From a virus, in IMG/VR virus record IMGVR_UViG_3300045988_156465: DNA of 64,000 nucleotides. One strand, given 5' to 3'. This document shows positions 303-28,592 of this stretch, in pieces. The position numbers and the translations under genes are program-made. How positions within the stretch are numbered: position 1 is the first letter of the stretch; every line of letters starts with the position of its first letter. The notes below the pieces were generated by a model. The model worked only from the letters and a program-made list of their open reading frames with translations, did not search any database and was not told the origin of the DNA.

Positions 303-425
303 ATATATAAGACCCTGCGTCCGAAAATCAGCGTCTATAGCCGCCTTGTTTCTTTCCATAATCACCGTACAGTCATGAACTAAACCGCTCAAAGGCAAGC
401 GCAACAAACAGGGTACATATCGGTG

Positions 426-650
426 TTATTCCTTTGGCATGCGGAAAATATTGTTTCCAGAGAATGGCAATTCTTCGTATGCCGCATGAAGTTCGTCAAA
501 GACTTCTTTTGCGCGTTCTATAGTTTTGTATGAGCCAAGCAAGGCGGCTGTTTTTCCCATGTCTCCAATAATTTCGTTCCGCTCGTTGATATAGATATAG
601 CATCCATATTCATCAACAGAACCCTTTCCTCTCTGGCTAATAATTCTCAT
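426..650 (-). CDS. small hypothetical phage protein (paralog of 17344..17619)
   Basis: ORF with GAAGGAG 8 nt upstream of the ATG at 650. The N-terminus MRIISQRGKG matches MRIISQGGKI of the 17344 product. Confidence 0.6.
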   Translation of the reverse strand: MRIISQRGKGSVDEYGCYIYINERNEIIGDMGKTAALLGSYKTIERAKEVFDELHAAYEELPFSGNNIFRMPKE

Positions 651-655
651 GTCAT

Positions 656-805
656 TCACTCCTTCGGCTCAAAATAATCACAGCCATAATCATATTCCGT
701 GTAATCAGTGTAATATTCACTATCCTCGTTATTGCAGGTAAAAAGCAACTCATGGTCTACACTGGCATATCTGCACTTACCGCAACATTCTTTTTCATCG
801 TACAT
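656..805 (-). CDS. 49-aa Cys-rich hypothetical protein
   Basis: ORF read by eye (below the track cut-off): MYDEKECCGKCRYASVDHELLFTCNNEDSEYYTDYTEYDYGCDYFEPKE. Its stop overlaps the RBS of the downstream gene. Confidence 0.45.
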   Translation of the reverse strand: MYDEKECCGKCRYASVDHELLFTCNNEDSEYYTDYTEYDYGCDYFEPKE

Positions 806-821
806 TTGTGACACCGCCTAC

Positions 822-1076
822 TTACTCTTTCAAAGTGTAATCTTCGCAGTTATTATTGAGTCTGCAATAATAGCCTACATAACCTATCCTTCCGTAATTT
901 TCCCGTTCCTCAACAATGCAATATTCGCAGTCAATACAGGTTGTATTTGGATGATACTTTGGTCTTGTAGGAGATTTTAATTCCTCAATCTCCTTTTTCA
1001 GATTTTCGATTGTACGGTCTCGCACATCGACATCGAATTCTAAATCCTTAATTCTTCTAAATGGGTTCCAAAACAT
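822..1076 (-). CDS. Cys-rich hypothetical protein
   Basis: ORF in track. AAAGGAG lies 8 nt upstream of the ATG at 1076. Cys cluster CIDCEYC...YYCRLNNNC. Confidence 0.55.
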   Translation of the reverse strand: MFWNPFRRIKDLEFDVDVRDRTIENLKKEIEELKSPTRPKYHPNTTCIDCEYCIVEERENYGRIGYVGYYCRLNNNCEDYTLKE

Positions 1077-1329
1077 TTTTATCACTCCTTTGTGCAGATG
1101 GGGGCTTTTTGTTTTTGAGGATATTTATGGGACTAAGTAGGGGCTTTTTCTACTCCTATCCAGACCCCCACCCCCGTCCATTTTCAACGGCGGAATCATC
1201 CAAGCCGCAACAACCGCTGTTCATCCGCATTGACTATAATTTTCTGTATTTATTCGCAAAATGATAGTTATGCGAATAGTTTTGAATCAATATCTTGTGT
1301 CAAGCATTTATTTTAAACTAGATATTGAT

Positions 1330-1953
1330 TTATTCGTTTCCGCTGTCCGTCAATCTGTCTGCATCTTGTGCAATTTCAACAGTTTTAACCTCGTTTAGTC
1401 TTGGAAGTTCGGCAGCTGATAGGGCGGTGCGATGTCTGTTAGCATCTGGCGCATATGGGCTGTTCCAACCGTAAAAGTGATTTAGGATTGCGATAACGCC
1501 TACAGGGTTCTGCTTTCCTGTGGCTAGTTTGCCCGATAAACTCTCAAGCCTTACATCTACTAGCTTTTTGTAAATTTTGAAAGCTTTATCACTTAGTTTT
1601 TTATTACCATTTCCCCATTCTTTTATTGCATCTCTACTTATCCCTGTTAAAAAACTAAAGCCATTGATAGATACTTCTTTATCGTTCATCAGGGATAAAT
1701 AAATATATATATCGCAGATATGGTCTACAAGCTCATAGTCATAGGCATTACAATTGCTCATTGCTCCTATACCATTCTTGAATAAAATACTAGATTTTAA
1801 CTGTTTAACATCTGGGAATACAATTTTTTTAATATACATCAAGGCGGCATTCCAGACGCTCTGGGATTCCTTGGACATGTCTGTAATTCCCTTTTCGGCA
1901 CAGAATGAATCTAGACACGCCTCGATTTCTGAATCATAAATTTTATTTTCCAT
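1330..1953 (-). CDS. terminase small subunit-like DNA-binding protein (solitary)
   Basis: 207-aa ORF. An HTH-like segment INGFSFLTGISRDAIKEW is followed by KQNPVGVIAILNHFYGWNS, which resembles the AIF-LKN-FGW motif of phage TerS proteins (from memory, not searched). No large terminase gene follows. Confidence 0.5.
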   Translation of the reverse strand: MENKIYDSEIEACLDSFCAEKGITDMSKESQSVWNAALMYIKKIVFPDVKQLKSSILFKNGIGAMSNCNAYDYELVDHICDIYIYLSLMNDKEVSINGFSFLTGISRDAIKEWGNGNKKLSDKAFKIYKKLVDVRLESLSGKLATGKQNPVGVIAILNHFYGWNSPYAPDANRHRTALSAAELPRLNEVKTVEIAQDADRLTDSGNE

Positions 1954-1990
1954 GCTCCGCGCCTCCTTCCTCGTTCCTGCTGCGGTAAAT

Positions 1991-2031
1991 TAAAAAAGCC
2001 GCAGAAAAAGATTTTACTCTCATTCTGCGGC
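1991..2031 (-). terminator. intrinsic terminator immediately upstream of the TerS-like gene
   Basis: Minus strand reads GCCGCAGAA-16 nt loop-TTCTGCGGC followed by TTTTTTA. Confidence 0.6.
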
Positions 2032-2388
2032 GTGTTGGTATCTTAATCAATAATTGGGGTGCCGTCCTTGCCGTTCAGGTCATCCAGGGCAACGGCGTTA
2101 GCTAGATGCCTTTTAAATTCAATTTTCTTTCTTGTGGGATATGATACAAAAATTTAATCATTCTGTCAATAGGGAATTTTATTTTTTATGATTTAATCGG
2201 TTTCTGTATTTGTTTTAAGATTTAATATATTACTACGTACTTAAATTCTTTTTTAGATTTCATTCTTGAATATATTAGATTTCATTGGTTTTACTGTATG
2301 AAGTAAGATACTAGATTACATTCTTTTTAACCCCTTACAGATACAGATGCTTGTATGGGGTATCGTGCATCTTTCAAAAGCTATCTTC

Positions 2389-2640
2389 TTAACCTAGTTT
2401 TTTGAGCCTTTCTATTATGTCAGAATCTTCTTTTTCATCCAGCTTGTATGTGATTAAATGTTCTGGCTTCATGTTCAGAATGATGCAAATTTTGTTAAGA
2501 GATTTCATGCTTATATTTGCATCGTTTTTCTTGATTTTCCGCCATGTGTCGACAGATAACAATCCATTTTTTACAGCCGTGTAAGAAGTAACCCCGGCGG
2601 ATTCTAATGCAGCTGCAACGTCAAATTTAAATACAATCAT
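2389..2640 (-). CDS. XRE-family helix-turn-helix regulator
   Basis: AAGGAGG RBS before the ATG at 2640. Product MIVFKFDVAAALESAGVTSYTAVKNGLLSVDTWRKIKKND has a typical Cro/C1 HTH layout. Confidence 0.75.
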   Translation of the reverse strand: MIVFKFDVAAALESAGVTSYTAVKNGLLSVDTWRKIKKNDANISMKSLNKICIILNMKPEHLITYKLDEKEDSDIIERLKKLG

Positions 2641-2672
2641 TTTAATAACCTCCTTCGTTTTTCCTATTCTCA

Positions 2673-2760
2673 ATTATACGAATTCCACCGCAAAAAATCA
2701 AGATAAGATATCTTTAAAAAGATATCTTCCTAAAATATTAAATCTTTTCAAAGATATCTT
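2673..2760 (-). promoter_or_regulatory. promoter TTGATT-17-TATAAT with three upstream AAGATATCTT palindromes
   Basis: Minus-strand -10 at 2673-2678 and -35 at 2696-2701. The perfect 10-bp palindrome AAGATATCTT occurs at 2705-2714, 2719-2728 and 2751-2760. Confidence 0.6.
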
Positions 2761-2787
2761 TACAAAGATAAATAAATGGTAAAATAT

Positions 2788-2814
2788 GGAAAAATAACCG
2801 CCATTTCTGGCGGT
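2788..2814 (-). terminator. intrinsic terminator after the RHH-like gene
   Basis: Minus strand reads ACCGCCAGAAATGGCGGT followed by TATTTTT, 6 nt after the stop at 2820. Confidence 0.65.
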
Positions 2815-2819
2815 CGGAT

Positions 2820-3359
2820 TTACAATGTTTCTAATCTCGCTCTGGTGAGCATTTCGGCGCGTTTCTTTTCCTTTTCTGCGGTCTCCATTGCCATAAGCTG
2901 GGCATAGGTGGCGGCATATTCGGGATTAGCTAGCAGCTTGCGCCGCTCCTGCTCCTCCTGTTCTTTCCGCTCCTGTCTTTCTTCCTCCTGTCTGATTTCG
3001 TCTGTTTTCCTGTTATCAAACATGGCTTGGATATCCTCGATTGTTAGCGGTTTTAAGCCGTTTTCGGGCGTTCTGACGGGCGTTTCCGCATCGGGTATGG
3101 GATTGGTCGGTTCTGACGTTTCCGGCTCTACAGGGGCAATCTCCGCTGCTTCTGTATCTGGTGTAGTGTCTGCTACTTTTGTAGATTCTTCACCGTTCAG
3201 ATTGTCTAATACGCATTTAACAATAAATCCGTTCAGACTGTCCCCTGCGGCGTTCCTGATTCGTTCTTCGTCCTCCTTTTTGAATCTGACAAGGGTTTTA
3301 AAATAGTTGTTCTTTTCATATTTTGCGGTTGCCCTTATGTGGGCTTTACTTGTAGCCAT
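2820..3359 (-). CDS. DNA-binding protein, N-terminal ribbon-helix-helix-like, charged C-terminal tail
   Basis: 179-aa ORF with AAGGAGG RBS. The N-terminus MATSKAHIRATAKYEKNNYFKTLVRFKKEDEERIRNAAG is followed by a Pro/Glu-rich linker and a charged coiled-coil-like tail. It is divergent from the iteron array. Confidence 0.6.
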   Translation of the reverse strand: MATSKAHIRATAKYEKNNYFKTLVRFKKEDEERIRNAAGDSLNGFIVKCVLDNLNGEESTKVADTTPDTEAAEIAPVEPETSEPTNPIPDAETPVRTPENGLKPLTIEDIQAMFDNRKTDEIRQEEERQERKEQEEQERRKLLANPEYAATYAQLMAMETAEKEKKRAEMLTRARLETL

Positions 3360-3376
3360 CTCGTAACCTCCTTTAT

Positions 3377-3568
3377 TGTTATCGTGTTATTTATTATAAC
3401 GATATCATAATGATGCTATCGTGTCAATATATTCATGTTATCGTGTTAATGCTATCGTTATAAATATATAGTGTTATCGGTATATAATTTGCACAATGAA
3501 TATATAGCGTTATCGTGTTATTTTGGCTACTATTCCGTATTGAAATTATAACACGTTAGCGTTATAAT
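3377..3568. repeat. array of about 8 TTATCG-core iterons in a divergent promoter region
   Basis: Copies include TGTTATCGTGTTA (3377), its inverted copy in ATAACGATATCA (3396), GCTATCGTG (3414), TGTTATCGTGTTA (3436), GCTATCGTTA (3451), TGTTATCGG (3472), CGTTATCGTGTTA (3509) and AGCGTTATAA (3558). A plus-strand promoter TTGAAA-17-TATAAT lies at 3541-3569. Confidence 0.75.
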
Positions 3569-3616
3569 ATACTCAAGAAGTTAAGAAAACAGCAAAACAA
3601 AAGGAGGAAATCAAAA

Positions 3617-3994
3617 ATGAAAGAATTTGAAATCATCGGCAACACAGTTATTAGTAGAGCATTTAAAGAGGATGTTTTTCAAATTGTTGAAAGAATCCCG
3701 GAAATGTTTTTTGTCTGGAACATCGGGGAAAACATGAAATCTGCGGAATGGATTCCGCTGTGTGAGGCTCTCCATCCGGGAGATAAAGACGATTACAGTA
3801 TCAATCCGGACACGTTAAAAGCCATTAATCTTCCAGAAAATGAAGTAAAGCTTTTAAGGGATGCGGCGGATTTCGGTATTAACAGTCTTGCAACCGCAGA
3901 AAAAGCACTCAAGAGCCGCAGACGTGGTTACATGAGCGACAGAAAAAGAGAACAAGCGAAAAAAGTAATTGATATTTTTCGTAGAATCTCATAA
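3617..3994 (+). CDS. hypothetical protein
   Basis: 125-aa ORF with AAGGAGG RBS. No motif recognised. Confidence 0.6.
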   Translation: MKEFEIIGNTVISRAFKEDVFQIVERIPEMFFVWNIGENMKSAEWIPLCEALHPGDKDDYSINPDTLKAINLPENEVKLLRDAADFGINSLATAEKALKSRRRGYMSDRKREQAKKVIDIFRRIS

Positions 3995-4075
3995 GCCGAA
4001 ACGGTCAGAAATGACCGTCAGCCGTGGGATAGTCTCCCGGCTCTGATGATGGCAGACGAAAAAGGAGAAATGAAA

Positions 4076-4351
4076 ATGACAAAGAAAGATTTAATGAAAG
4101 AATTTAACGAATTACAGGAAGAAAAGAAATGCAGAATCGAAGGTATTTACTGGAATAGTAATAAAAGCAGCATCCAAAATGCGATTAACTGCTTAAAATG
4201 TTCTGATGAAATGCTTGAAAAATATTTAATCGTTGTCAGTCTTAAATATGAAAATATCGGGGAAAGGATAAAAAGCAATGGAGATTTTAAGCACCATCCG
4301 CACAACAGGCTTTATGTTTTTAACACCGCAAGGGCAATTTTAGCCGATTAA
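4076..4351 (+). CDS. hypothetical protein
   Basis: ORF in track. AGGAG lies 8 nt before the ATG at 4076. Confidence 0.55.
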   Translation: MTKKDLMKEFNELQEEKKCRIEGIYWNSNKSSIQNAINCLKCSDEMLEKYLIVVSLKYENIGERIKSNGDFKHHPHNRLYVFNTARAILAD

Positions 4352-4454
4352 GTCGAAACCGCCTTCTGGCGGTCTTGGGTAGGGCGGCAACCTTCCAACT
4401 GATGAGACAAGCCAAAGAAAAAAGGAACATGAGAAAAAGAAAGGAAAGATAAGA

Positions 4455-4820
4455 ATGAAAAAATTTGAATTGTTTATGTGCTGTTTGGGAAATGGAATCA
4501 CTGTTTGCGATAAGGCAGTAGAAGAAAACGGAGATTATAAAAGTGTTGCCCATATTGCAAATTGTGGAAAAATCACATGGTATGTCAATCCTGAAAGATA
4601 CATACCATCCGATGCGCTATTAAAAATTGAGCATACGGCTAATGTGCAGCATGAAAAATGGGAACAGTGGTTAAACTCTATGCCGGAGATAAAACAGTAT
4701 GAAAAACTGTTAAATGCTGTTCCGTTGAATGTAATGCTTTATGCAATGGACTTAGGCGGCGGATTGGAAAGAAAAATTCATTACCTAAAGAAAGTGTGTT
4801 ATGAAAAGGCGTACTTTTAA
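4455..4820 (+). CDS. hypothetical protein
   Basis: 121-aa ORF with an AAAGGAAAG purine-rich RBS. No motif recognised. Confidence 0.55.
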   Translation: MKKFELFMCCLGNGITVCDKAVEENGDYKSVAHIANCGKITWYVNPERYIPSDALLKIEHTANVQHEKWEQWLNSMPEIKQYEKLLNAVPLNVMLYAMDLGGGLERKIHYLKKVCYEKAYF

Positions 4821-4885
4821 CAAAAAGGAATCCGCAGGGCTTGACGTTCTGCGGATTGGCTGTGTAGAAAAGGAGAGATAACCGA

Positions 4886-5176
4886 ATGAAAAAAGAAAAG
4901 TTTTTCGCAGTCCGTCAGCTTGCAGGGCAAAAAAAGGAGCGTGTGCTTGCGGAAGGGTACAGGGTGGAGCGCGGAGAATTTGTTTTTTATATCTGCGGCT
5001 CTGGTGGCTCTTGGAGCGTGACAGAAGCAAAAAGCGGTATGTTAATAGGTGTTTACGGAAAAACCCGAAAAGAATGTATAGAAAAATTACAGGCGTTCGA
5101 CCTGTCAAGGCTTGAAAAATTCGACCTTGAGAAGCTGAATAAGGAAATGCTTTCTCTGCCCCTCTGCGGCTTGTGA
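4886..5176 (+). CDS. hypothetical protein
   Basis: 96-aa ORF with AAGGAGAG RBS. Confidence 0.55.
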   Translation: MKKEKFFAVRQLAGQKKERVLAEGYRVERGEFVFYICGSGGSWSVTEAKSGMLIGVYGKTRKECIEKLQAFDLSRLEKFDLEKLNKEMLSLPLCGL

Positions 5177-5507
5177 GAGGGCGCTTTCTTTTTTTTGGCG
5201 GTTAATCGGTCAAGTGAAATAAAAAGGCGGCTTATAGGGGCGAATATAGGGCGAAAATGCATATTGAAAATGTTTTCTGTTTTTGGTATTATAAAAATGA
5301 TTAAGATTTCCCAGTGGATAAAAGTGAGAAATGGCACTGCTTTATGCGGTGCTTTTTTCTTTGCCAAAAATAGGGCGAAAAATTTTTTGAAAGCAGAACC
5401 CCAAAAACCCACCAAAAAGGCAAAATATTCACAAAAAGACAAAAAATATTGCAAAAAAATTGTTAGTGTTATATGATGGAAGGACAAAACAAAAAGGAGG
5501 GTTTTAT

Positions 5508-6353
5508 ATGAAATTTCAAAGATTAAAAGACATGGTTTGCGGTGCTGTGATTGCATCAATGGTCTTGTGTTCTGGTACGGTGGCATTTGCTAAGGTGGCA
5601 AACACAAGTATCCCTGTGTCATTTAGCAATATCAAGATTATTGTCGATGGGAAACAGCTTTCCACAAACAAAGAGCCTTTCACCTACAACGGAACAACCT
5701 ATCTACCTGTTAGGGCGGTAGCCGAAGCGGTTGGTAAAGATGTTACATGGGATGGCGCAACAAAAACGGTTTATCTTGGCGAAAAGCCGCAGAATGCCGC
5801 GCAAACAACAAACAATCAGACGAAAGAATTAAGCGCAAAAGAATACTATTATGAGAAGTACGGTTCTTTTTATTATGACCTTCTTGTAACAAATAATTCT
5901 CCCGATGCGCTGAGGATTGAAAGCAATGTAGTTGCAAAGGATGCGGCAGGAAATTCTATCGGGGCAAAGTCTGATTCTGCTCCTGTTGTCGGCAGTGGAG
6001 AAACAGCTATCTTGACACATATTTTTGATAGTGTTCCTGCAAAAACAACATATACATTAAAAACAGAAAAAGAAACATATTTCAAATCTGCAACCGCAGA
6101 TTTGAAAACAACTTCCTCCAAAGCAGGGGATAAGGTTCTTGTTGCTGCTACAAACTTAGGAAACTATGATATGGAATTTGTAAAGGCAACTGTATTTTTC
6201 TTCAAAAATGGGAAAGTAGTTGGTTCTGATTACAAATATTTAGACGATAATAGCTACAAACTGAGCGCAGGCGGAACAGTTACGGAAGAATTTGAGCTAT
6301 TCCCAGAAAATGAATTTGATAAGTATGAGGTATACGTTGAAGCGAGAAAATAA
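5508..6353 (+). CDS. secreted protein with copper-amine-oxidase N-terminal-like (stalk) domain
   Basis: AAAAGGAGGG RBS. Signal peptide MKFQRLKDMVCGAVIASMVLCSGTVAFA. IKIIVDGKQL..PFTYNGTTYLPVRAVAEAVG matches the stalk-domain pattern common in clostridial secreted proteins. Confidence 0.7.
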   Translation: MKFQRLKDMVCGAVIASMVLCSGTVAFAKVANTSIPVSFSNIKIIVDGKQLSTNKEPFTYNGTTYLPVRAVAEAVGKDVTWDGATKTVYLGEKPQNAAQTTNNQTKELSAKEYYYEKYGSFYYDLLVTNNSPDALRIESNVVAKDAAGNSIGAKSDSAPVVGSGETAILTHIFDSVPAKTTYTLKTEKETYFKSATADLKTTSSKAGDKVLVAATNLGNYDMEFVKATVFFFKNGKVVGSDYKYLDDNSYKLSAGGTVTEEFELFPENEFDKYEVYVEARK

Positions 6354-6373
6354 TATTGAAAAGGAGTTTAACC

Positions 6374-6934
6374 ATGGAAAACAAAGAAAATGAAGTAAAA
6401 AAGTGCAAACATTGCCAGTCAGATATTCCGAAAAAAGCTAAGATTTGCCCGAATTGTCGGAAAAAGCAAGGCGGTAAGTTGAAATTTATTATTGCATGGA
6501 TTTTTTTAATTATTATTGCGATTGCTTCGATTGGCGGCGGAGATGGTTCAGGGAAAAAAGACGATTCAGAAAATATTTCGCCTGAGCAGTACAAGTCTGA
6601 GTGCATAGATGTTTCCTATGATGATTTGGCAAGGAAACCAGACGAATACGAAGGGCAGAAAGTGAAGTTCCGCGGACAAATTAGGCAGGTCGTGAAAGAT
6701 TCTGACAGTAGCACTTCCGAATATTTGATTCCTGTTACGGAAGGTGATTACGGTTTATGGGATGATAATGTGTTTGTAAAGCTCAGCCCAGACAACAAGG
6801 ATGGAAAATTCCTTGAAGATGATATTGTAACATTCTACGGCGAATCAGCAGGGGAGTATAAATATACAAGTATTTTGGGGCAGTCTATAACAATCCCTTG
6901 TGTGAAAGCTGTTTACATGGAAATTACGGAATAA
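6374..6934 (+). CDS. zinc-ribbon membrane protein with extracytoplasmic domain
   Basis: AAGGAG RBS. CKHCQSD..CPNCRKK zinc ribbon, one TM helix FIIAWIFLIIIAIASIGGG, then a soluble C-terminal domain. Confidence 0.7.
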   Translation: MENKENEVKKCKHCQSDIPKKAKICPNCRKKQGGKLKFIIAWIFLIIIAIASIGGGDGSGKKDDSENISPEQYKSECIDVSYDDLARKPDEYEGQKVKFRGQIRQVVKDSDSSTSEYLIPVTEGDYGLWDDNVFVKLSPDNKDGKFLEDDIVTFYGESAGEYKYTSILGQSITIPCVKAVYMEITE

Positions 6935-7029
6935 GGATAGAATCAAAAAAGAAAAAGAATAAAAAGCAATAGAGAATGAGCATCGCAGAAAAGCGGTGCT
7001 TTTTCTTTTGGAAAATTTTAAGAAAACAC

Positions 7030-7073
7030 TTGACAAAATGTAATTACAAAGTTAAAATGAAAATGTAATTACA
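7030..7073 (+). promoter_or_regulatory. promoter TTGACA-17-TAAAAT with two copies of the operator AAATGTAATTACAAA
   Basis: -35 at 7030-7035 and -10 at 7053-7058. The palindrome TGTAATTACA lies at 7039-7048 (in the spacer) and 7064-7073 (just after the -10). Confidence 0.7.
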
Positions 7074-7095
7074 AATTGAAGGGTGGTGATGGAAA

Positions 7096-7272
7096 ATGTC
7101 GCCTAAGATGGGACAAAAGATAACGGATAATCCAAAAAACAAGTTAATTCAAGTTAGAATGGATAAGGAGACGGTAGAAAAATTAGATTATTTAGCTGCT
7201 GAACAAAATTCTGACAGGTCTAAAATAATTAGGCAGGGGATTGAAATTCAGTACAACCAAAGAAACAAATAA
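7096..7272 (+). CDS. Arc/Mnt/CopG-type ribbon-helix-helix repressor (58 aa)
   Basis: ORF read by eye: MSPKMGQKITDNPKNKLIQVRMDKETVEKLDYLAAEQNSDRSKIIRQGIEIQYNQRNK. It has a strand-helix-helix pattern and lies directly downstream of the operator pair. Confidence 0.65.
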   Translation: MSPKMGQKITDNPKNKLIQVRMDKETVEKLDYLAAEQNSDRSKIIRQGIEIQYNQRNK

Positions 7273-7398
7273 AAAAAGGCGGTAACTGCCACAGACTACC
7301 AATCAATAACAGTTGCCACCGCACGCCATAAGGAGTGTATATAAAGTATAGCACTGTATACCTCCTTTTGGCAATAATAAATAAAGGAGGTTATCGAA

Positions 7399-8070: not shown

Positions 8071-8104
8071 AAAAGGAAAGGGGGCTAATAAAAGCCCCTC
8101 AATC

Positions 8105-17340: not shown

Positions 17341-17343
17341 TTT

Positions 17344-20448: not shown

Positions 20449-20670
20449 TTGAGAATAGAAAATTTAATCGTTTTTTTGAAAGAGAATTTTGAAAAAGGGA
20501 TACAAATGTTTGATACTCCGAATATTGTGGGCGATTTCATGGTGCCTATTTATAAGAAGGACAATATATTGGTGTTGTACGCGCCGGAATATGACTATAT
20601 TGAGATATTCGGAATATCTGATGAAGAATTTGAAAGAGTTGAGAAAGAGGTTAATCGGAAAAGGCGGTAA
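20449..20670 (+). CDS. hypothetical protein
   Basis: TTG start 8 nt after GGTGGAG. 73 aa. Confidence 0.45.
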   Translation: MRIENLIVFLKENFEKGIQMFDTPNIVGDFMVPIYKKDNILVLYAPEYDYIEIFGISDEEFERVEKEVNRKRR

Positions 20671-20674
20671 GATT

Positions 20675-21505: not shown

Positions 21506-21517
21506 GGCGGTGGAAAG

Positions 21518-22108
21518 ATGGACTATCAGAAATTCAAGAAAGCGAAGGCTATTGAGAAGAAGAACAAGGAACGCTTGCTGAAAGTAAATCCAAAATTGAA
21601 TGAGGATAGCGGAATTTATTTCCTAACAAGAATTGATGAAAACGGATTCAAATACGCATATATCGGGCAAGCGGTACATATTCTGACGAGACTTGCACAA
21701 CATCTTGTCGGCTATCAGCATATCGACCTTTCACTGAAAAAACATGGCTTGTATGATGCGGAAACAAACCAGTACGGATGGAAAATCGGTTTCATGCTTT
21801 ACAAAGACACCGAGTTGGATAGTGCGGAACAGCACTGGATAAAGAAATATGCTGATGGTGGTTATCAGTTGCGGAACAAGACAAGTGGCTCACAGGGAGA
21901 GGGCAAATCGCAGATTGCGGAATATAAAGCCGCCAAGGGATATCGTGATGGCTTGGAACAGGGCAGAAAGAATCTTGCGAAGGAATTATCGAATATTGCC
22001 GAAAAGCACCTCACAATCGAAATTAGAGAGGATAAGAGGGGAAACAAGATTTCAGAACGGCAGTATGAGAAGTTTATGGAGTTGATGAAAGGAGAGGTGG
22101 ATTCGTGA
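21518..22108 (+). CDS. GIY-YIG nuclease domain protein
   Basis: SGIYFLTRIDENGFKYAYIGQAVHILTRLAQH...EQHWIKKY...YQLRNKTSG carries the GIY, YIG, Arg, Glu and Asn hallmarks. Confidence 0.75.
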   Translation: MDYQKFKKAKAIEKKNKERLLKVNPKLNEDSGIYFLTRIDENGFKYAYIGQAVHILTRLAQHLVGYQHIDLSLKKHGLYDAETNQYGWKIGFMLYKDTELDSAEQHWIKKYADGGYQLRNKTSGSQGEGKSQIAEYKAAKGYRDGLEQGRKNLAKELSNIAEKHLTIEIREDKRGNKISERQYEKFMELMKGEVDS

Positions 22109-23370
22109 AATTCATTGACTTCTTCTCTGGTGTCGGTGGTTTCCGCAGAGGGATGGAGCTGGCGGGACATGAGTGTGTGGGATTCTGTGAATTTGATAAA
22201 TTTGCAGTAGCCAGCTACACAGCCATGCACCTTATGACGGAAAAGGATCGAGAGTACATAAGCACGTTGCCGAAAAACAAAAGAGTGGCAGAAGCAGGAA
22301 AGGAGGAGTACAGGCATGGAGAATGGTATGCAAATGACATTAGACGGATTTTCGCCGAGGACATACCGAAAACAGACTGCTGGTGTTTCGGATTCCCCTG
22401 TCAGGACATCAGCGTTGCCGGAAAGCAGCTTGGCTTTAACGGAGCAAGAAGCAGCCTATTTTTCAGAGTTATGCGCCTTGTGCAAGACCTCGAAGAAAAA
22501 GATAGACCCACATACCTATTCATTGAGAACGTTAAAAACCTACTTAGCGTTAATGGGGGAACGGACTTCCTTAAACTTCTCATTGCGCTGGACGAAAGTG
22601 GGTACGATGCAGAGTGGCAAGTTATCAACTCTGCCGATTACGTCCCACAAAACAGGGAAAGAGTTTTCGTTATCGGACATCTTAGAGGGAGAAGTACCAC
22701 AAAAGTATTTCCTATCGAAAGAGCAGACAGAGAAAATAGTGTTCAAATAATCGCACATAGAGAGGGATTCCGCAGGAATATGCAAGTGTTTTCTCCGGAA
22801 GGGATAACAGAATCGCTAGACACAGGGCAAGGTGGCGGAAGAGGTCATTATACCGCCATGCCCGTATTTTGCGATATGTCAAAAAGTGCAGGAATACAAA
22901 CTTATGATAAGGCGTTTTGCTTGCAAGCGAGATACCATAAAGGCGTTTGCAACAGGCGAAAGGAAATAAGTGGCATTTGCGTTCCTGTACTTACTCCGGA
23001 CAGAGCAGAAAAAAGACAGAACGGCAGAAGAATGAAGGGAAATGGAGAGCCAATGTTTACTCTGACCGGACAGGACCGGCACGGAGTTATGATTTCAACG
23101 CCTGACGGAATGGCGTTTTATGCCATTTGGTACGAAAAATATCAGTGCTATATTGCTATCCGCAAACTGACACCGAGAGAATGTTTCCGGCTGCAAGGAT
23201 GGTCGGATGAATATTTCAATAGGGCTGAATTGGTAAACAGTGACAGCCAGTTATATAAACAGGCAGGGAACGGCGTGACCGTACCAGTAATATACGAGAT
23301 TGCAAAAAGAATGAGGGCGAATGGGAACATTTCTGCCCGAATTGTATGGAGTGATAGAAATGGAAAATAA
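22105..23370 (+). CDS. DNA (cytosine-5) methyltransferase
   Basis: FSGVGG (motif I), GFPCQDIS (IV), ENVKNL (VI), QNRERVF (VIII), GNGVTVPV (X). GTGA overlap with the GIY-YIG gene. Confidence 0.95.
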   Translation: MKFIDFFSGVGGFRRGMELAGHECVGFCEFDKFAVASYTAMHLMTEKDREYISTLPKNKRVAEAGKEEYRHGEWYANDIRRIFAEDIPKTDCWCFGFPCQDISVAGKQLGFNGARSSLFFRVMRLVQDLEEKDRPTYLFIENVKNLLSVNGGTDFLKLLIALDESGYDAEWQVINSADYVPQNRERVFVIGHLRGRSTTKVFPIERADRENSVQIIAHREGFRRNMQVFSPEGITESLDTGQGGGRGHYTAMPVFCDMSKSAGIQTYDKAFCLQARYHKGVCNRRKEISGICVPVLTPDRAEKRQNGRRMKGNGEPMFTLTGQDRHGVMISTPDGMAFYAIWYEKYQCYIAIRKLTPRECFRLQGWSDEYFNRAELVNSDSQLYKQAGNGVTVPVIYEIAKRMRANGNISARIVWSDRNGK

Positions 23371-23590
23371 AACAGTAGACCACACGAATATTTTTGAAAG
23401 TTATCTGGCGCAAGATATCTTTATCATGGGTATTATCGAAAAGGTTGTTAATGACTGGAAACGAACCAAGTGGAAAGAAGGTACTTTTAACAGAGAAAAT
23501 TTAGAAGATTTCTTTTTGGACGATTTCCAACAGTGGCTTGAATTGGGCGTTGATGAATGGTGTAACGAAGAATGGGGACAGGAGGGATAA
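23360..23590 (+). CDS. hypothetical protein
   Basis: 76-aa ORF beginning MENKTVDHT. Confidence 0.5.
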   Translation: MENKTVDHTNIFESYLAQDIFIMGIIEKVVNDWKRTKWKEGTFNRENLEDFFLDDFQQWLELGVDEWCNEEWGQEG

Positions 23591-23592
23591 AC

Positions 23593-23933
23593 ATGGACGC
23601 AATAAAATTCTTGAAAGAAAAAAATAGAATGACGAAAAAGTGCAGTATTGATTGCTCTGATTGTCCGCTTAGCAGTGAAAAAACCCAACTGGTTTCGCGT
23701 GTGGCGATTTGCAGAGAGTGTATTCAGAGATTGCAGTTTCTATTGTAGAAAAATGGTCGGAGGAACATCCGCCGGAAACAAGACTGACAGAGTTTTTGAA
23801 ACACTACCCAAATGCACTAATGGAGGATGATGGAACTCCGGAAGTGTGTGTAAACGAATTGGGACTCAAAAGAGATGACGGATGTATCTCGAACTGTATA
23901 AAATGTTGGAACACACCGATTGAGGAGGAATGA
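23593..23933 (+). pseudogene. frame-interrupted paralog of the C-terminal domain of 15666..16337
   Basis: Frame 1 gives MDAIKFLKEKNRMTKKCSIDCSDCPLSSEK. Homology continues in the -1 frame as NPTGFACGDLQRVYSEIAVSIVEKWSEEHP...CWNTPIEEE. The switch is at the A6 run 23678-23683. Confidence 0.7.
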
Positions 23934-23937
23934 CAAA

Positions 23938-24558
23938 ATGGCAATTAAACCGATTTTATTTAATACAGAAATGGTACAAGCGATTCTGGATGGACGAAAG
24001 ACATGCGCTCGGCGGATTGTGAAAGGTGCTATCCCTGATGATGCGATGTGGGGGTATACCATGTTTACACCAAAAGGCTGTATATCTTGCAGGGGGGTGT
24101 ATGCCGATGGATACGGCGAAGGATTTTACAAATTGCCGTACCAGCCGGGCGATATTCTGTATGTCCTGGAAACTTGGGGGTATCCAATTGCTTTAAATTC
24201 AGATAAACAGTATGTTTTTAGAGCGGACGAAGTAGCAGAAAGTGGCTTTAAAAATGATAGCCATATATGGCATCCATCAATTCACATGCCGAAAGAAGCT
24301 GCTCGTATCTGGCTGAAGGTGACGGATGTTAGGGTGGAACGCTTGCAGGATATGACAGATGATGATGCAGAAGCAGAGGGATGTTTCGATTATACATCAA
24401 CAGCACTTGGTTTTCCCGATGTATGGGATTCCACCATCAAAAAATCCGACATTGGCCGTTGCGGATGGGCGGCTAACCCTTGGGTTTGGGTGGTTGAATT
24501 TGAACGGTGCGAGAAGCCGAGGGAGGGATGGAACAGGAGTACAAAGTATGAATCTTAA
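23938..24558 (+). CDS. ASCH domain protein
   Basis: KPILFNTEMVQAILDGRKTCARR ... WHPSIHMPKEAARIWLKVTDVRVERLQDM is the typical phage ASCH pattern. Confidence 0.75.
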   Translation: MAIKPILFNTEMVQAILDGRKTCARRIVKGAIPDDAMWGYTMFTPKGCISCRGVYADGYGEGFYKLPYQPGDILYVLETWGYPIALNSDKQYVFRADEVAESGFKNDSHIWHPSIHMPKEAARIWLKVTDVRVERLQDMTDDDAEAEGCFDYTSTALGFPDVWDSTIKKSDIGRCGWAANPWVWVVEFERCEKPREGWNRSTKYES

Positions 24559-24596
24559 CGAGAAAATCAACAATAAATAAGAGTGTGGTGTTGTTT

Positions 24597-25334
24597 ATGG
24601 CAATATACAGGAATTTGCATATATCGTTCTGGACGGACAGCAAGGTCGAGGATGATTTCACGCCAGAGGATAAGTATTTCTATGCTTATCTTCTGACAAA
24701 CCCACAGACGAACATCTGCGGCTGCTATGAGGTCAGTTTTAATCAAATATCGCACCATACAGGATATACGAAGGACACAATTTCAAGGCTGATAAGGCGT
24801 TTTGAAAATGTGCATGGCGTGATTCGGTACTGTGCGGAAACAAAGGAAGTCTTGATTCTCAAATGGTACAAATACAACTGGAGCAAGTCAGAGAAAACGC
24901 TTGCAGGAGTTGAGAATGTTGCAAAGCATATTAAGTCCGATGATTTTAGGCGGTACGTTATGGATACGGTAAATAAGGTTAGAGGCAGTGCGGACGATTG
25001 CCAGACGGAAGAAGAACCGAAAAGTATTCCTTCCGTTTCTGTAAAGAAAGTATCTTCTGCGGATATGCTGAATGACATGGTTTCCGAGTTTGCTATTTCC
25101 GATTATCTTCTGGAATCGGTGCAGGACTGGATAGCCTACAAGGGAGAGAGAAATTTCAAGTACAAAGAAAGAGGTTTGCGGACACTTTTAAAAACAATAT
25201 CCGAAAAATCAACACAGTACGGAGATACGGCGGTATCAACGGCAATAAATGAAAGCATTTCAAGCGGATATCAAGGTATTGTTTGGGAGAAAATCGGGAA
25301 GGCTTCCAGTAGCGATATAAACTGGAATTTTTAG
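24597..25334 (+). CDS. phage replisome organizer / DnaD-like replication protein
   Basis: MAIYRNLHISFWTDSKVEDDFTPEDKYFYAYLLTNPQTNICGCYEVS matches the replisome-organizer N-terminal pattern. Confidence 0.7.
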   Translation: MAIYRNLHISFWTDSKVEDDFTPEDKYFYAYLLTNPQTNICGCYEVSFNQISHHTGYTKDTISRLIRRFENVHGVIRYCAETKEVLILKWYKYNWSKSEKTLAGVENVAKHIKSDDFRRYVMDTVNKVRGSADDCQTEEEPKSIPSVSVKKVSSADMLNDMVSEFAISDYLLESVQDWIAYKGERNFKYKERGLRTLLKTISEKSTQYGDTAVSTAINESISSGYQGIVWEKIGKASSSDINWNF

Positions 25335-25337
25335 GGG

Positions 25338-26024
25338 GTGTGTTTTGTGCTGACAAAAGAGGAAACGAAGAAAATCCTGCGTATCATGTATAACTGTTTT
25401 CAGAATTTCAGACCAAAGAATATCGAAGAAACAACGGAGGTTTGGGGAATGATGCTTTCAGATTATACATATCAGCAGATTTCGGTTGCGTTGAAATCCT
25501 ATATCCTGTCCGATACAAGCGGATTTGCACCGACAATCGGGCAGTTGGTTGATATGGTTCATTCCGTTAGCAAACCGCAGGAATTGAACGAAATGGAGGC
25601 GTGGTCGTTAGTCAGTATGGCGATTAGAAACAGCGGATACCGATATACCGAGGAATTTTTGAAACTTCCTGCAATTATTCAACGTGCAATCGGAACGCCA
25701 GAACAGCTACACATTTGGGCTACGGATGAAGATTATAACGAGACAGTAGTTATGAGTAATTTTCAGCGGTCATACCGGCTTGTGCTGATGCAGAAAGACG
25801 AAAGCGCAAAGCTGCCAACAGAAGTGCGGAATTTGCTTTCTAATAATGAAAATCCTGCCAGAATAGAAATGCAGGATAGGATTAAGCAGCTTTCTAATGC
25901 GTTTGACGAAAAGAGCAAACTGCTGATTGAAGGCAAGGAGAAGAAGGAAAGAGTAGTGGATGATTCTGTTATGGACACCGTTCATGCAGAATTAGAGAAA
26001 ATAAAGGCAATGAGTATCAGATAA
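25338..26024 (+). CDS. replicative helicase loader/inhibitor-like protein (G40P-loader type)
   Basis: The call rests on its position after the organizer and on W..ML.DYTYQQISVALKSYILSDTSGFAPTIGQL. GTG start; the exact start is uncertain. Confidence 0.55.
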   Translation: MCFVLTKEETKKILRIMYNCFQNFRPKNIEETTEVWGMMLSDYTYQQISVALKSYILSDTSGFAPTIGQLVDMVHSVSKPQELNEMEAWSLVSMAIRNSGYRYTEEFLKLPAIIQRAIGTPEQLHIWATDEDYNETVVMSNFQRSYRLVLMQKDESAKLPTEVRNLLSNNENPARIEMQDRIKQLSNAFDEKSKLLIEGKEKKERVVDDSVMDTVHAELEKIKAMSIR

Positions 26025-26046
26025 AAACCAGAACGGAGGAAGATTT

Positions 26047-26484
26047 ATGAAAACGCCAATCGTAAAATCTGATGAAGGAAAACCGCAACTTAACCTTGTG
26101 CCGTTGGAACTTTTAGAACCATTGGCAAGGGTTCGTGAATTTGCTGTTGAGAAATACGGTCTTGAAGGTATCGAATCATGGCGCAATATTTCCGATGATA
26201 GATTGTTAGCTGCTCTGCTGCGGCATACGATTACTTACCAAAAAGACCATGACGCGCGTGACGAGGAAAGCGGATTGCCTGCTGCGTATCATGTAGCTAT
26301 CAACGGTGCATTTCTTGCCATCAAGGCTATGGAGAGAATGAAAGAAAGATGTGGATACCAAGTCAAAGAAGTCAAAGAAATTAGCTTTTACGAAAATCTG
26401 CCGCCGGAAGCGCAGAAAAGGGTGGACAAATTTCTTTCTGTGGCTTGCGAAGGTGGCGTAAAAGATGAATCTGAATCAGATTGA
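26047..26484 (+). CDS. dATP/dGTP diphosphohydrolase-like (DUF5664-like) protein
   Basis: SDEGKPQLNLVPLELLEPLARVREFAVEKYG...WRN...LLAALLRH...DEESGLPAAYHVAINGAFL. The pattern was recalled from that family, not searched. Confidence 0.55.
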   Translation: MKTPIVKSDEGKPQLNLVPLELLEPLARVREFAVEKYGLEGIESWRNISDDRLLAALLRHTITYQKDHDARDEESGLPAAYHVAINGAFLAIKAMERMKERCGYQVKEVKEISFYENLPPEAQKRVDKFLSVACEGGVKDESESD

Positions 26485-26827
26485 AAAGAAAAAACGGTAT
26501 CAGAAGCAAAAAAGAATCATTGAAGAAGCAAAGACAGAGGCTATCGAGAATATGCAGAAAGTCATAAATAATGGCTTAGACTCTCAAATGGAACTGGTTA
26601 TGCTGTTGGTTCTGCATGATAAATTTGGTTTCGGTCCGGAGCGGTGCGCAAAGGCATTGGTTGCTTTTGAACAGTTATGGGCTGATGTTGGGGATAAGCA
26701 CCTTTGTCTTGATGATATTGAGGAAGTGGTAAAGGCTGAAATTGGAATCGAAATGACTGAGGATACTATTTTTCAGACCGACAAGAAAGGGAATAAGAAA
26801 TTGCTTTGGTCTAACGAGAATACATAA
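26465..26827 (+). CDS. hypothetical protein
   Basis: 120-aa ORF overlapping the upstream stop. Confidence 0.5.
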   Translation: MNLNQIEKKKRYQKQKRIIEEAKTEAIENMQKVINNGLDSQMELVMLLVLHDKFGFGPERCAKALVAFEQLWADVGDKHLCLDDIEEVVKAEIGIEMTEDTIFQTDKKGNKKLLWSNENT

Positions 26828-26842
26828 AGGGGGTACTCTTAA

Positions 26843-27244
26843 TTGGCTTTGCGAGATTTGACAAAGCCAGAATTGCGAAAAATTATAGAGAACGCCAATT
26901 TTACCGAGGATGAGATGATGGTATTTCAACTGTCCAGTAACGGTTCCCCTATTGATTATATAGCGGACACGATGAAAATATCATCATCTACGGTGAATCG
27001 CATTTTGAGGAAGATTTATAAGAAAATAGAAAGGATTGAGGATATGTCGAAACCAGAAGTGCCGATTTGGCAGAAAGTTACAATGACGATTGATGAAGCG
27101 TCCGCCTATAGCAATATCGGAACGGCAACGCTCAGAAAACTTGCGAATAACCCAAGATGCACTTTTGCTCTTACAAACGGGAACAGAAAGCTCATTAAGC
27201 GAAAGGAATTCGACAAGTTTATTGAAAATACTGTTGAGATATAG
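26843..27244 (+). CDS. sigma-70 region-4-like HTH (Tn916 orf7-like) read in frame with an excisionase domain
   Basis: TTG start. N-terminal half FTEDEMMVFQLSSNGSPIDYIADTMKISSSTVNRILRKIYKKI. The C-terminal half is the Xis-like domain (next feature), with no stop between them. Confidence 0.6.
   Translation: MALRDLTKPELRKIIENANFTEDEMMVFQLSSNGSPIDYIADTMKISSSTVNRILRKIYKKIERIEDMSKPEVPIWQKVTMTIDEASAYSNIGTATLRKLANNPRCTFALTNGNRKLIKRKEFDKFIENTVEI
27044..27244 (+). CDS. Tn916-type excisionase (possible internal start)
   Basis: This is the xis candidate. MSKPEVPIWQKVTMTIDEASAYSNIGTATLRKLANNP..NGNRKLIKRKEFDKFIE parallels Tn916 Xis (..IPIWERYTLTIEEASKYF..NGNRIQIKRKQFEKII, from memory). 66 aa, against 67 aa in Tn916. 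Confidence 0.65.
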   Translation: MSKPEVPIWQKVTMTIDEASAYSNIGTATLRKLANNPRCTFALTNGNRKLIKRKEFDKFIENTVEI

Positions 27245-27314
27245 ACAGAAATTAGCCCCGTATGGTAGTATGAAGCTGTATGGGGCTTTTCTCAAAATGA
27301 AAGGGTGTGTAACG

Positions 27315-28442
27315 ATGGGAAAAGACCTTAGAGGTAAAGAATTAGGCGTTGGTATCAGCCAACGGAAAGACGGAATGTATACAGGACGTTTTACAACAAA
27401 ATCTGGAAAACGAAAACAGAAATACTTTCATAAGTTGCAGGAGTGCAGGGCATGGATGGCAGATGCGCAGTTTGAGGATGAACATGGTGATGTGTTCTTT
27501 TCTGACTCTCCAACAGTCGATGCGTGGTTTGACTACTGGATAAATGAAGTAAAGGGAGATAGCATAAGAATTATAACAGAAAGAAACTACAGAAGTATGT
27601 GGAGCTTTTCTATTTCTCCAATTATTGGGAATATGGAATTAAAAGACGTAAAGCCGATTCATTGTCAGAAAGTACTAAATATGATGAATGAAGGGCATAA
27701 GACATCTACCATTAAGGTGCATAGAGATTTAATGTGGAGTGTTTTTGAATGTGCTGTCGAAAATTATTTAATAGAAAGAAATCCTGTAAGAAGGAATGTG
27801 AAAGCAACTGGTGGTAAAAAAACAGAAGCGCGAGAAGCACTAACTGTTGATGAGCAAAAAACTTTCTTAAAAGAATCAGAAAAATCATCATTTTATAATG
27901 GATATGCGTTTGTGCTGCAAACCGGGATTCGGGTTGGAGAATTGATTGCGTTAAAGTGGTCTGATGTAGATTTTAAAAATCGAAAAATAAAAATACAGAG
28001 AAGTGCATCGGAGGTCGCGAAACAAGGGTTTGTAATCGGAGAACCAAAGACAAAAAGCGGGCATCGGGAGATACCGCTTACAAAAGAAGCTGTCAATATT
28101 TTATATAGTCAAAAAGAGAAGAATTCTCAAAACAAAATTATTCCAATCCAGTATGCAGATTATATTTTTCTGAACAAAAACGGAAATCTAATTCAAAAGT
28201 CAGCGTATAATCAAGGAATATATGCTATTTGCAATAGATTGGGAATGAGAAAGTTCTCAATTCACTTGCTAAGGCACACATTCGCTACGAGATGTATAGA
28301 AAGTGGTATGCGCCCTAAAACGCTGCAAGCAATCCTAGGTCATAGCAAAATTGAAATGACGATGAATTTGTATGTTCATGTAACGGATGAATCCAAACTG
28401 GAGGAAATCGAAGCAATAGAAAAAAACTTAAAATTGGTGTAG
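27315..28442 (+). CDS. tyrosine recombinase, Tn916 Int family
   Basis: This is the E1 int gene. The N-terminal arm-binding motif GISQRKDGMYTGRF matches Tn916 GESQRKDGRYLYKY. The catalytic region reads HLLRHTFATRCIESG...LGHSKIEMTMNLYVH. Confidence 0.9.
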   Translation: MGKDLRGKELGVGISQRKDGMYTGRFTTKSGKRKQKYFHKLQECRAWMADAQFEDEHGDVFFSDSPTVDAWFDYWINEVKGDSIRIITERNYRSMWSFSISPIIGNMELKDVKPIHCQKVLNMMNEGHKTSTIKVHRDLMWSVFECAVENYLIERNPVRRNVKATGGKKTEAREALTVDEQKTFLKESEKSSFYNGYAFVLQTGIRVGELIALKWSDVDFKNRKIKIQRSASEVAKQGFVIGEPKTKSGHREIPLTKEAVNILYSQKEKNSQNKIIPIQYADYIFLNKNGNLIQKSAYNQGIYAICNRLGMRKFSIHLLRHTFATRCIESGMRPKTLQAILGHSKIEMTMNLYVHVTDESKLEEIEAIEKNLKLV

Positions 28443-28454
28443 AAATTGGTGTAG
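28431..28454 (+). repeat. 12-bp tandem duplication AAATTGGTGTAG x2 spanning the integrase stop codon
   Basis: Copy 1 (28431-28442) encodes K-L-V-stop. Copy 2 (28443-28454) is identical. Confidence 0.9.
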
Positions 28455-28592
28455 AAATAAAAAATACATATAGAACACCTTGTTTTATCAATGTTTTTAA
28501 TAAGTATATACATTTTGGGAATAAAGTGATATGATAGCTTGATGGATTGAAGAATGTCAGAAAATTTCCTTAAAGGATAAGGAGGATACAGC

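Follow-up and report, generated by a model that had tools for sequence, protein, structure and literature searches.

An early-gene region upstream of trkA is most probably the right-hand part of a complete temperate phage of Anaerotignum-like gut Clostridia

Introduction

Is a 28-kb run of phage early genes, with an integrase (Int) at one end, a small-terminase (TerS)-like gene near the other and no virion gene between them, a satellite that needs a helper, a hybrid or remnant, or one side of an ordinary phage? The question is raised by element E1 in the IMG/VR virus record IMGVR_UViG_3300045988_156465, of which a stretch of 64,000 nt was analysed (the window; positions are those of the window unless a locus is named). 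A second prophage, E2, occupies 31934-64000. The initial annotation read E1 at positions 303-28560 and offered three readings of it: (a) a helper-dependent satellite resembling a phage-inducible chromosomal island (PICI); (b) a hybrid between a phage and an integrative and conjugative element (ICE), or a decayed prophage; (c) a complete prophage whose late genes lie leftward past the window edge. We compared E1 with related loci listed in three sets of ten, found through the TerS-like protein (L001-L010), Int (L011-L020) and the host protein TrkA (L021-L030), and with further contigs that extend them. We concluded, with a probability of about 0.9, that E1 is the right-hand 28.5 kb of a complete and active temperate tailed phage of ~54.5 kb which, as judged from sequence comparison, is integrated between hisS and trkA in Anaerotignum-like gut Clostridia.

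In near-identical copies the late genes lie to the left of the window

In a survey of open reading frames (ORFs), nearly all plausible genes from ~3.6 to 28.4 kb are on the plus strand and the genes at 0.4-3.4 kb are on the minus strand. Two opposed arms diverge from a control region at ~2.0-3.6 kb, the leftward arm being the one that leaves the window. The TerS-like protein of this arm (1330-1953) is identical in 731 blocks of the assembly collection, from which ten loci on contigs of 50-64 kb were listed. One of them, L002, matches window 1-11967 in one block at 99.79% identity, window position 1 corresponding to locus position 11953; the other listed loci are 93-99.9% identical with mosaic gaps. 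In contigs 99.8% identical to window 1-11967, the gene of the large terminase (TerL) starts ~1.9 kb left of window position 1. Leftward from the window these contigs carry the rest of a tRNA-Met gene, tRNA-Ser, four to six small ORFs, a TerL of 580-598 aa, a 142-aa protein and an SPP1-type portal, followed, where the contig reaches (L010 ends within the portal gene), by a Phage_Mu_F head-morphogenesis protein, a scaffold-sized protein, a 112-aa phrog_909 head protein and a Phage_cap_E major capsid. The L002 matches are strong for TerL (598 aa; phrog_38, 2e-44), portal (Pfam SPP1_portal, 1e-78) and major capsid (Phage_cap_E, 3.6e-41).

The map was extended with two more contigs. On the IMG/VR contig L031, which is 99.92% identical to L002 and encodes the same capsid at 100% identity, further genes specify a tail-completion protein, a candidate tail tube protein and a 1247-aa tape measure (phrog_1535, 1.7e-72); with this long tape measure the phage is siphovirus-like. 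L192 is 100% identical to the end of L031 and continues through the genes for tail and lysis, then eight small genes, before reaching attL and hisS. The chain formed by the window, L002, L031 and L192 places attL ~25.9 kb left of position 1, and the prophage is therefore ~54.5 kb long (~25.9 kb plus 28.52 kb), in agreement with contigs of 53.4-56.2 kb. The Int-side loci and L031 have 1.1-2.7 kb in common at 87-96% identity (95-96% in six of ten), and the map therefore closes into a circle. Beyond Int, nine of these ten loci have a ~380-bp non-coding stretch and then eight small plus-strand genes, after which the minus strand encodes an NlpC/P60-like protein, a holin-like protein, a Gly-rich tail fibre, a 592-aa protein, a DUF6711 protein and the end of the tape measure. 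In the prophage, the eight small rightward genes separate attL from the lysis genes. The lysis candidates are the holin-like protein (PHROG match, 1.5e-05) and, below the cut-off, the NlpC/P60 protein as endolysin. The two ends of the 53.4-56.2-kb contigs meet at one map position; by arithmetic both ends of L001 fall at ~15.2 kb window-equivalent.

Inspection of the left flank in near-identical copies, a check proposed by the initial annotation, found a contiguous morphogenesis and lysis module directly beside the window, the very finding that the initial annotation had said would make E1 an ordinary prophage. The earlier statements that E1 has no capsid, portal, tail or lysis gene and a lone TerS without TerL hold inside the window and fail beyond it, because both describe where the window ends. 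Reading (c), a complete prophage with late genes past the edge, is supported by the module that runs from TerL to attL and hisS in these copies.

The same evidence bears on the satellite, which would use its own TerS to redirect a helper such as E2. What speaks for it is that the window part has a TerS-like gene and lacks structural genes. In the near-identical copies, however, TerL, portal, capsid, tail and lysis genes are contiguous with the TerS-like gene, the element measures ~54.5 kb and not 10-15 kb, and circular 53-56-kb forms occur alone in many samples. Nor did E2 gain support as a helper: by blastn the two elements are alike in DNA at one stretch of 213 bp, at 69% identity. We consider a satellite hardly credible.

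The complete phage belongs to a lineage that is well represented in metagenomes, with a related capsid encoded by 216 IMG/VR viral contigs. Megablast of L002 positions 10001-20624 and window 12000-28600 against GenBank phages returned only tRNA-sized or 250-bp matches and no close relative. The lineage is uncultured and absent from GenBank phages, yet already represented by 216 IMG/VR loci.

Two side observations concern these contigs. The 142-aa protein between TerL and portal (L002 15606-16034) matches phrog_36, "transcriptional regulator" (4e-14), in an unusual place for a regulator. Many circular-looking contigs of 51-56 kb in the European Nucleotide Archive (ENA), made by different assemblers, are opened in one ~3-kb region of the early arm, at ~13.5-16.5 kb window-equivalent in the SbcC-like/DUF7666 genes (L001-L006, L009, L011, L016 and L018, by arithmetic on locus coordinates). 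The shared opening region may reflect an assembly-graph branch at a module common to other phages, or strain heterogeneity.

Attachment sites and integration between hisS and trkA

Comparison of junctions gave an attachment core of 8 bp, TTTTGGGA, mostly with an A next to it, that is common to attB, attP and attR. In the window, attR (28431-28520, plus strand) consists of two arm-type repeats, the P arm and the core at 28513-28520, past which the sequence is that of the host; the element ends at this core and not at 28560. The arm-type repeat AAATTGGTGTAGAA occurs at 28431-28444 and 28443-28456, overlapping the int stop codon. Five copies flank the core in attP, two on the int side and three ~230 bp away on the other arm. 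The attB site lies between hisS and trkA, 73 bp before the start codon of trkA, and is empty in nine of the ten TrkA contigs; in the tenth (L027) it is occupied by the same xis-int genes before trkA. The core is carried as attB by nine contigs, as attP by nine contigs, as attR by the window and L027, and as attL by L020 and L191-L194. The attL junction (hisS flank, core, P' arm) follows an N-gap in the scaffold L020 and is also present in four metagenome contigs of 79-183 kb. The search for empty sites in related genomes, suggested earlier as a way to map the element ends, was productive in that the hisS-trkA site was found empty nine times, along with nine circular attP junctions and four attL junctions. 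The attL junction in the source genome would be expected to read GTCTTGTAT-TTTTGGGA-(A)TGAAATGATATTG, followed by hisS.

An identical Int is found on contigs of 38-56 kb, and nine of the ten listed loci run from int into attP and the distal late genes and not into trkA. Such an arrangement is that of a circular or concatemeric form, and the junctions indicate that the prophage excises in vivo.

The initial annotation had set the left end of E1 at 303, beside tRNA genes. These tRNAs are phage genes inside the late operon and do not mark a host boundary. The tRNA-Gly gene was considered as the integration target and rejected; every circular copy has the tRNAs inside the phage, and the actual attB is in the hisS-trkA spacer.

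Downstream of Int are the host genes trkA (28593-29951) and trkH (29976-31427). TrkA is 97% identical to a protein of an Anaerotignum metagenome-assembled genome, and the next-best matches (70-95%) are mostly from Anaerotignum or uncultured Clostridia; this protein comparison places the host among Anaerotignum-like Clostridia. An exact 40-mer of the host side of attB/attR had no match among the GTDB representative genomes, and a literature search on Anaerotignum prophages returned nothing relevant.

We also observed that the att core sits in the 17-nt spacer of a promoter-like site of trkA, which reads TTGTAT-17-TGaTATGAT in attB (L021 5915-5950). In attR (28507-28535, plus strand), the phage arm supplies TATACA as a substitute -35 element, 17 nt upstream of TGaTATGAT. 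Expression of trkA is probably preserved after integration.

On the other side of trkAH, E2 is an unrelated prophage located just downstream of trkH. It has TerL, portal and tail genes of its own, and its integrase (31934-33175, minus strand) contains an Arm-DNA-bind_4 domain. An E2-type integrase is found beside trkH in L021, L023, L026 and L028 and is absent in L022, L024, L025, L027, L029 and L030. E2 is present or absent independently among strains, and the trkAH operon is therefore flanked by two independent prophage sites. As a separate observation, L192 positions 2287-2528 and 3403-4032 are ~80-82% identical to the distal late region of E2 (window 61154-61390 and 63371-64000), a likeness which suggests that the two phage lineages of this host have exchanged tail-fibre or lysis modules.

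The excision and integration genes and the Tn916 question

Separate genes had been annotated at the right end for a sigma-like helix-turn-helix (HTH) protein and for the excisionase (Xis). We found one uninterrupted ORF of 133 aa (26843-27244, plus strand), with a GerE/sigma-r4-like HTH at residues 19-63 (GerE, 25 bits) and a Tn916-family excisionase at residues 72-130 (Pfam Tn916-Xis, PF09035, 66.4 bits against a cut-off of 22.9). The ORF is kept at 133-135 aa in L011-L020 and L027, with no stop between the domains. An internal ATG at 27046 is preceded by GAGGA and could give a free Xis of 66 aa. Int had been read as a 450-aa ORF starting at TTG; we took the ATG at 27315 as its start, which gives a tyrosine integrase of 375 aa (27315-28442, plus strand) with matches to Pfam Phage_integrase (1e-31), Phage_int_SAM_3 and Phage_int_M and to phrog_1 (3.5e-75). 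A promoter-like site with an extended -10 element lies between xis and int at 27242-27271.

How much of this module points to Tn916? The Xis match to the Tn916 family stands, as its score is well above the cut-off. The likeness of Int to Tn916 is confined to the arm-binding domain (Integrase_DNA, PF02920) and is sub-threshold, at 19.6 bits with a cut-off of 27 (E 9e-4, residues 3-42); the SQRKDG motif at the Int N-terminus presumably resembles Tn916 Int. Xis matches the phage excisionase family phrog_16129 (6e-21), and by these profile matches both proteins belong to ordinary phage families, phrog_16129 and phrog_1. The outward direction of xis-int had been taken to favour a Tn916-family element over a lambdoid prophage; the lambda pL operon has the same arrangement, so the direction does not discriminate between them.

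We weighed on this basis the reading that E1 joins a Tn916-type recombination module to phage early genes and has lost its late genes, as a phage/ICE hybrid or decayed prophage. The Xis family and the sub-threshold Int N-terminus agree with it, and so does the fact that the late module is known from copies and not from this genome's own left flank. Against it, Pfam and PHROG scans of selected genes of the window, L002 and L011 and of ten L031 genes found no relaxase, FtsK-like coupling protein or type IV secretion gene such as one for a VirB4-like ATPase, and no conjugation gene was present among the precomputed Pfam matches on L001-L020. The window is moreover collinear with an intact phage up to position 1, attR is intact, Xis and Int fall in the phage families just named, and the lineage occurs as complete circles and as prophages bounded by attL and attR. 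A hybrid or decayed element is in our judgement very unlikely, and a complete temperate phage remains the preferred reading.

The TerS-like gene and the head of the late operon

The leftward late operon is preceded by a leader (1992-2169, minus strand) in which a promoter-like site, TTGACA-17-TATCAT at 2169-2141, matches 11 of 12 positions in the promoter scan and is followed by a hairpin and a U-run. The hairpin (2031-1999, minus strand) has a folding energy of -21.4 kcal/mol (z -6.65, with none of 200 shuffles as good), in keeping with the intrinsic terminator annotated before the TerS-like gene.

The first gene of the operon encodes the 207-aa TerS-like protein (1330-1953, minus strand). 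It matches Pfam GP3_package (PF16677, P22 gp3-like TerS) at 18.3 bits, below the cut-off of 29.4 (E 0.0027), while 26 of 32 homologues match the same family at E<=1e-3 (best 4e-06). The AF2 monomer model is helical (pLDDT 72.5) and gave no Foldseek match to PDB with E<1; phmmer and a family profile gave chance-level matches to PDB sequences only, for example CorA. The protein had no significant match to PHROGs. Comparison with the annotated TerS of Clostridium phage Maintenon, described below, was not significant by BLASTP or hhalign, with only an HTH-like motif of 45 residues aligning. We nevertheless regard the 207-aa protein as probably the small terminase on the strength of its family match and gene position.

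The alternative is that it is a regulator or another leader protein of the late operon, TerS being one of the small ORFs upstream of TerL or some other DNA-recognition subunit. The insignificant PHROG, PDB, fold and Maintenon comparisons, together with a distance of ~3.2 kb between the 207-aa gene and TerL, would fit this alternative. It is opposed by the 26 of 32 family members that match the P22 TerS family, by the ORFs beside TerL being only 47-80 aa, and by Maintenon, where the annotated TerS has the same position and is also set off from TerL by small ORFs and tRNAs. In addition, several full-length viral contigs end inside or beside the 207-aa gene: the ~54-kb IMG/VR contigs L033, L038 and L042 end inside it and L063 and L079 end 296-450 bp upstream, which makes five of the ~11 full-length IMG/VR contigs ending within the fetched 21-kb stretch with an end within ~0.8 kb of the TerS-like start. 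These contig ends are consistent with a pac site there. We think the alternative unlikely, though not far-fetched, and refer to the protein as TerS-like.

As initially annotated, three tiny genes and two tRNAs follow the TerS-like gene in the window. The small ORFs (426-659, 656-814 and 822-1085, minus strand) belong to the late operon; the corresponding genes encode 84, 49 and 74 aa in L001-L007, L009 and L010, and 93, 49, 76 and 77 aa in L008. A PHROG scan of ORFs 426-659 and 822-1085 found no match (656-814 was outside the scan). The tRNA-Gly(TCC) gene (232-302, minus strand; ARAGORN, Rfam 58.3 bits) is in the same place in all related phage contigs. At 1-49 (minus strand) lies the 5' part of a tRNA-Met(CAT) gene cut by the window edge, which matches the first 46 positions of the Rfam tRNA model at 33.8 bits. 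Full tRNA-Met and tRNA-Ser genes are present in L001, L003, L007 and L008. Three phage tRNAs (Gly, Met, Ser) accordingly stand between the TerS-like gene and TerL, Met being the second.

Control region, exchangeable cassette and regulators

Two regulator genes precede the late operon in the control region, one encoding an HTH_26 regulator (2389-2673, minus strand; Pfam HTH_26, 7e-06) and one a 179-aa protein (2820-3359, minus strand) whose N-terminal part varies among relatives. A terminator-like site is present at 2815-2796 and promoter-like sites at 2701-2673 and 3427-3399.

Phages that are otherwise 93-99.9% identical differ by exchange of a cassette at window ~3166-3994, which in some relatives reaches 4061. 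Its left break, at ~3166-3171, falls in the N-terminal part of the 179-aa regulator gene. On the right, similarity resumes exactly at the 5' edge of a ribozyme (3994) or just past its 3' edge (4062). The cassette holds the putative DNA-binding N-terminus of the regulator, divergent promoter-like sites (3427-3399, minus strand; 3540-3568, plus strand) and the first rightward ORF, and it looks like an immunity-type specificity swap. The ribozyme at its border is a type II hammerhead (3994-4061, plus strand), found at full length with Rfam RF02276 (58.5 bits against a gathering threshold of 37, E 8e-10) and containing the core elements CUGAUGA and GAAA. Its first base is also the final base of the ORF 3617-3994 stop codon, and its CUGAUGA core includes the start codon of ORF 4046-4351. 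L002, L004, L006, L007, L008 and L010 carry the hammerhead; L003 and L005 lack it. No second ribozyme turned up in window 1-30000 when Rfam was run below threshold. Hammerheads beside genes in prophages were already known (PMC3088659).

The rightward arm begins with an accessory block (3617-8070, plus strand) of small ORFs and four genes named from precomputed Pfam and PHROG matches: a secreted Cu_amine_oxidN1-domain protein (5505-6353), a zinc-ribbon membrane protein (6356-6934), a ribbon-helix-helix protein (7096-7272) and an ORF6N antirepressor (7399-8070; PHROG anti-repressor, E 1e-34), all on the plus strand. Two minus-strand genes follow. The first (8105-8419) is named an HTH_26 protein from a weak precomputed match on the equivalent 83-aa gene of related contigs only, and the ORF itself had no match to PHROGs. 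The second (8838-9254) encodes a CI-like HTH_3 repressor (phrog_8, 1.4e-10; phrog_3), with a weak precomputed HTH_3 match on the equivalent 126-aa gene in relatives. The genes at 8105-9254 are a candidate lysogeny switch. A second ORF6N antirepressor (phrog_4608, 1e-44) is encoded at 10209-11018 on the plus strand.

Recombination, modification and replication genes

The early functions listed in the initial annotation (regulators, two antirepressors, an SbcC/Rad50-like ATPase, RecT, a metallo-beta-lactamase (MBL)-fold protein, single-stranded DNA-binding protein (SSB), a replisome organizer with loader and two methyltransferases) were recovered in the window with Pfam and PHROGs. The order along the rightward arm is accessory genes, the repressor/antirepressor region, recombination, modification and replication genes, and finally xis-int beside the att site; the genes below are all on the plus strand. 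Pfam and PHROG scans identified an SbcC/Rad50-like ATPase (12977-14911; phrog_77, 2e-39), a DUF7666 protein (14893-15663), RecT (16285-17340; phrog_2185, 6e-87), an MBL-fold hydrolase (19059-19781) and SSB (20001-20423).

The modification genes encode an N6/N4 methyltransferase (20489-21505; Pfam N6_N4_Mtase, 3e-27), a phrog_19106 protein (21518-22108) and a C5 methyltransferase (22105-23370), with further PHROG scores in this segment of 6e-97 (phrog_116) and 4e-49 (phrog_67). We observed that the modification segment (~21.5-24.5 kb window-equivalent) is highly variable in relatives (L011, L012, L018 and L020), where N6/N4 and C5 methyltransferases are mixed with PAPS-reductase-like, Mom-like, DUF4406 and HNH genes. 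The segment is probably an anti-restriction hot spot. Replication is represented by a DnaD/replisome-organizer-like protein (24585-25334; phrog_6251, 3e-43), a G39P-like helicase loader (25338-26024; Pfam Inhibitor_G39P, 1e-08) and a protein similar to the N-terminal part of dGTP diphosphohydrolase (26047-26484; phrog_801).

Proposed life cycle and weight of the evidence

We propose that Int bound to core and arm sites would recombine attP with attB, and that Xis would direct excision. On induction, transcription of the early arm would run on into the xis-int genes at its far end, as it does in the lambda pL operon, and the promoter-like site at 27242-27271 could serve establishment. Late genes would be transcribed leftward from the promoter-like site at 2169-2141 (minus strand) through the leader hairpin, a step that would need an activator or antiterminator to carry transcription past the hairpin. 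An SPP1-type portal, a MuF protein and a P22-gp3-like TerS are typical of headful-packaging phages, and TerS and TerL of E1 would probably package DNA by a headful mechanism from a pac site in or near the TerS-like gene.

Several points weigh against the conclusion that E1 is part of a complete active phage and account for the remaining doubt. The late module is inferred from copies elsewhere that are 99.8-100% identical, and a strain-specific deletion left of the window is possible. Production of infectious particles is supported only indirectly, by circular contigs with attP and by the 216 IMG/VR viral contigs, and the regulatory steps proposed above follow from motifs only. The endolysin is a sub-threshold NlpC/P60 match, and the TerS assignment is weak, being below the Pfam cut-off and without a match in PHROGs, PDB sequences or folds.

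We concluded that the window edge cuts through a standard temperate phage, of which E1 is one part, and that neither counts of satellites nor counts of phage/ICE hybrids should include E1. What is gained is a full map of a prevalent uncultured gut phage lineage, with its att sites, host, integration site, gene order and closest cultured relative. The opposed arms, the single HTH-Xis ORF and the hammerhead at 3994-4061 with its exchangeable control cassette are minor oddities worth noting. That these oddities set the lineage apart, as uncharacterised and highly prevalent human-gut Anaerotignum phages defined by an inverted two-arm layout, an HTH-fused excisionase and a ribozyme-bounded control cassette, is a doubtful proposition that we would not expect to hold. 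If it were true, the HTH-Xis fusion could couple excision to transcriptional control, and the self-cleaving hammerhead bounding the cassette would process the early transcript; E1 would be a normal prophage either way.

Comparison with known systems

Among cultured phages, Clostridium phage Maintenon (ON453900.1) is the nearest by protein comparison, with 40% identity in TerL, 36% in the portal, 53% in the capsid and 33% in RecT. Maintenon is an induced prophage of [Clostridium] innocuum and one of 13 induced OMM12 prophages (PMC10197239). It resembles the phage of E1 in being temperate, in its genome of ~55-57 kb, in the small phrog_909-type head protein upstream of the capsid with a tail completion protein and a long tape measure to follow, and in its early SbcC-like ATPase, RecT, metal-dependent hydrolase and SSB. 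Its late operon also starts with TerS, small ORFs, tRNAs (two in Maintenon) and small ORFs before TerL; the layout described as a lone TerS is therefore a conserved start of the late operon in this group. The two differ in that Maintenon has int and the repressor leftward at one end and the rest rightward, whereas in E1 the whole early arm, with xis-int at its end, has the inverse orientation to the late arm. Maintenon also has its own DnaB helicase and primase, and neither was seen in E1; no similarity was detected between the TerS proteins, nor any at the nucleotide level.

Opposed arms are not peculiar to E1. In mycobacteriophage L5 the arms are opposed with attP and int between them, and the two-arm layout of E1 is a rearranged but unremarkable architecture. 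In phage lambda, the pL operon carries recombination genes and then xis and int toward the adjacent att site, outward in the prophage. E1 is similar to it in having xis-int distal in an early operon with recombination functions and transcribed toward att. It differs from lambda in that its replication genes are in the xis-int arm, its late genes are on the opposite strand, and one ORF joins an HTH domain to a Xis that belongs to the Tn916 Pfam family.

With Tn916, E1 shares a PF09035 Xis above the cut-off and a tyrosine recombinase Int with arm-type repeats on both att arms. Unlike Tn916, it has a complete structural module, has no conjugation module in the scanned genes, and uses a single intergenic attB with an identical 8-bp core in place of variable AT-rich targets with coupling sequences. 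With PICIs and other satellites, the window part of E1 has in common an integrase, regulators and a TerS-like gene; the full element, in contrast, is ~54.5 kb long and encodes TerL, portal, capsid, tail and lysis candidates.

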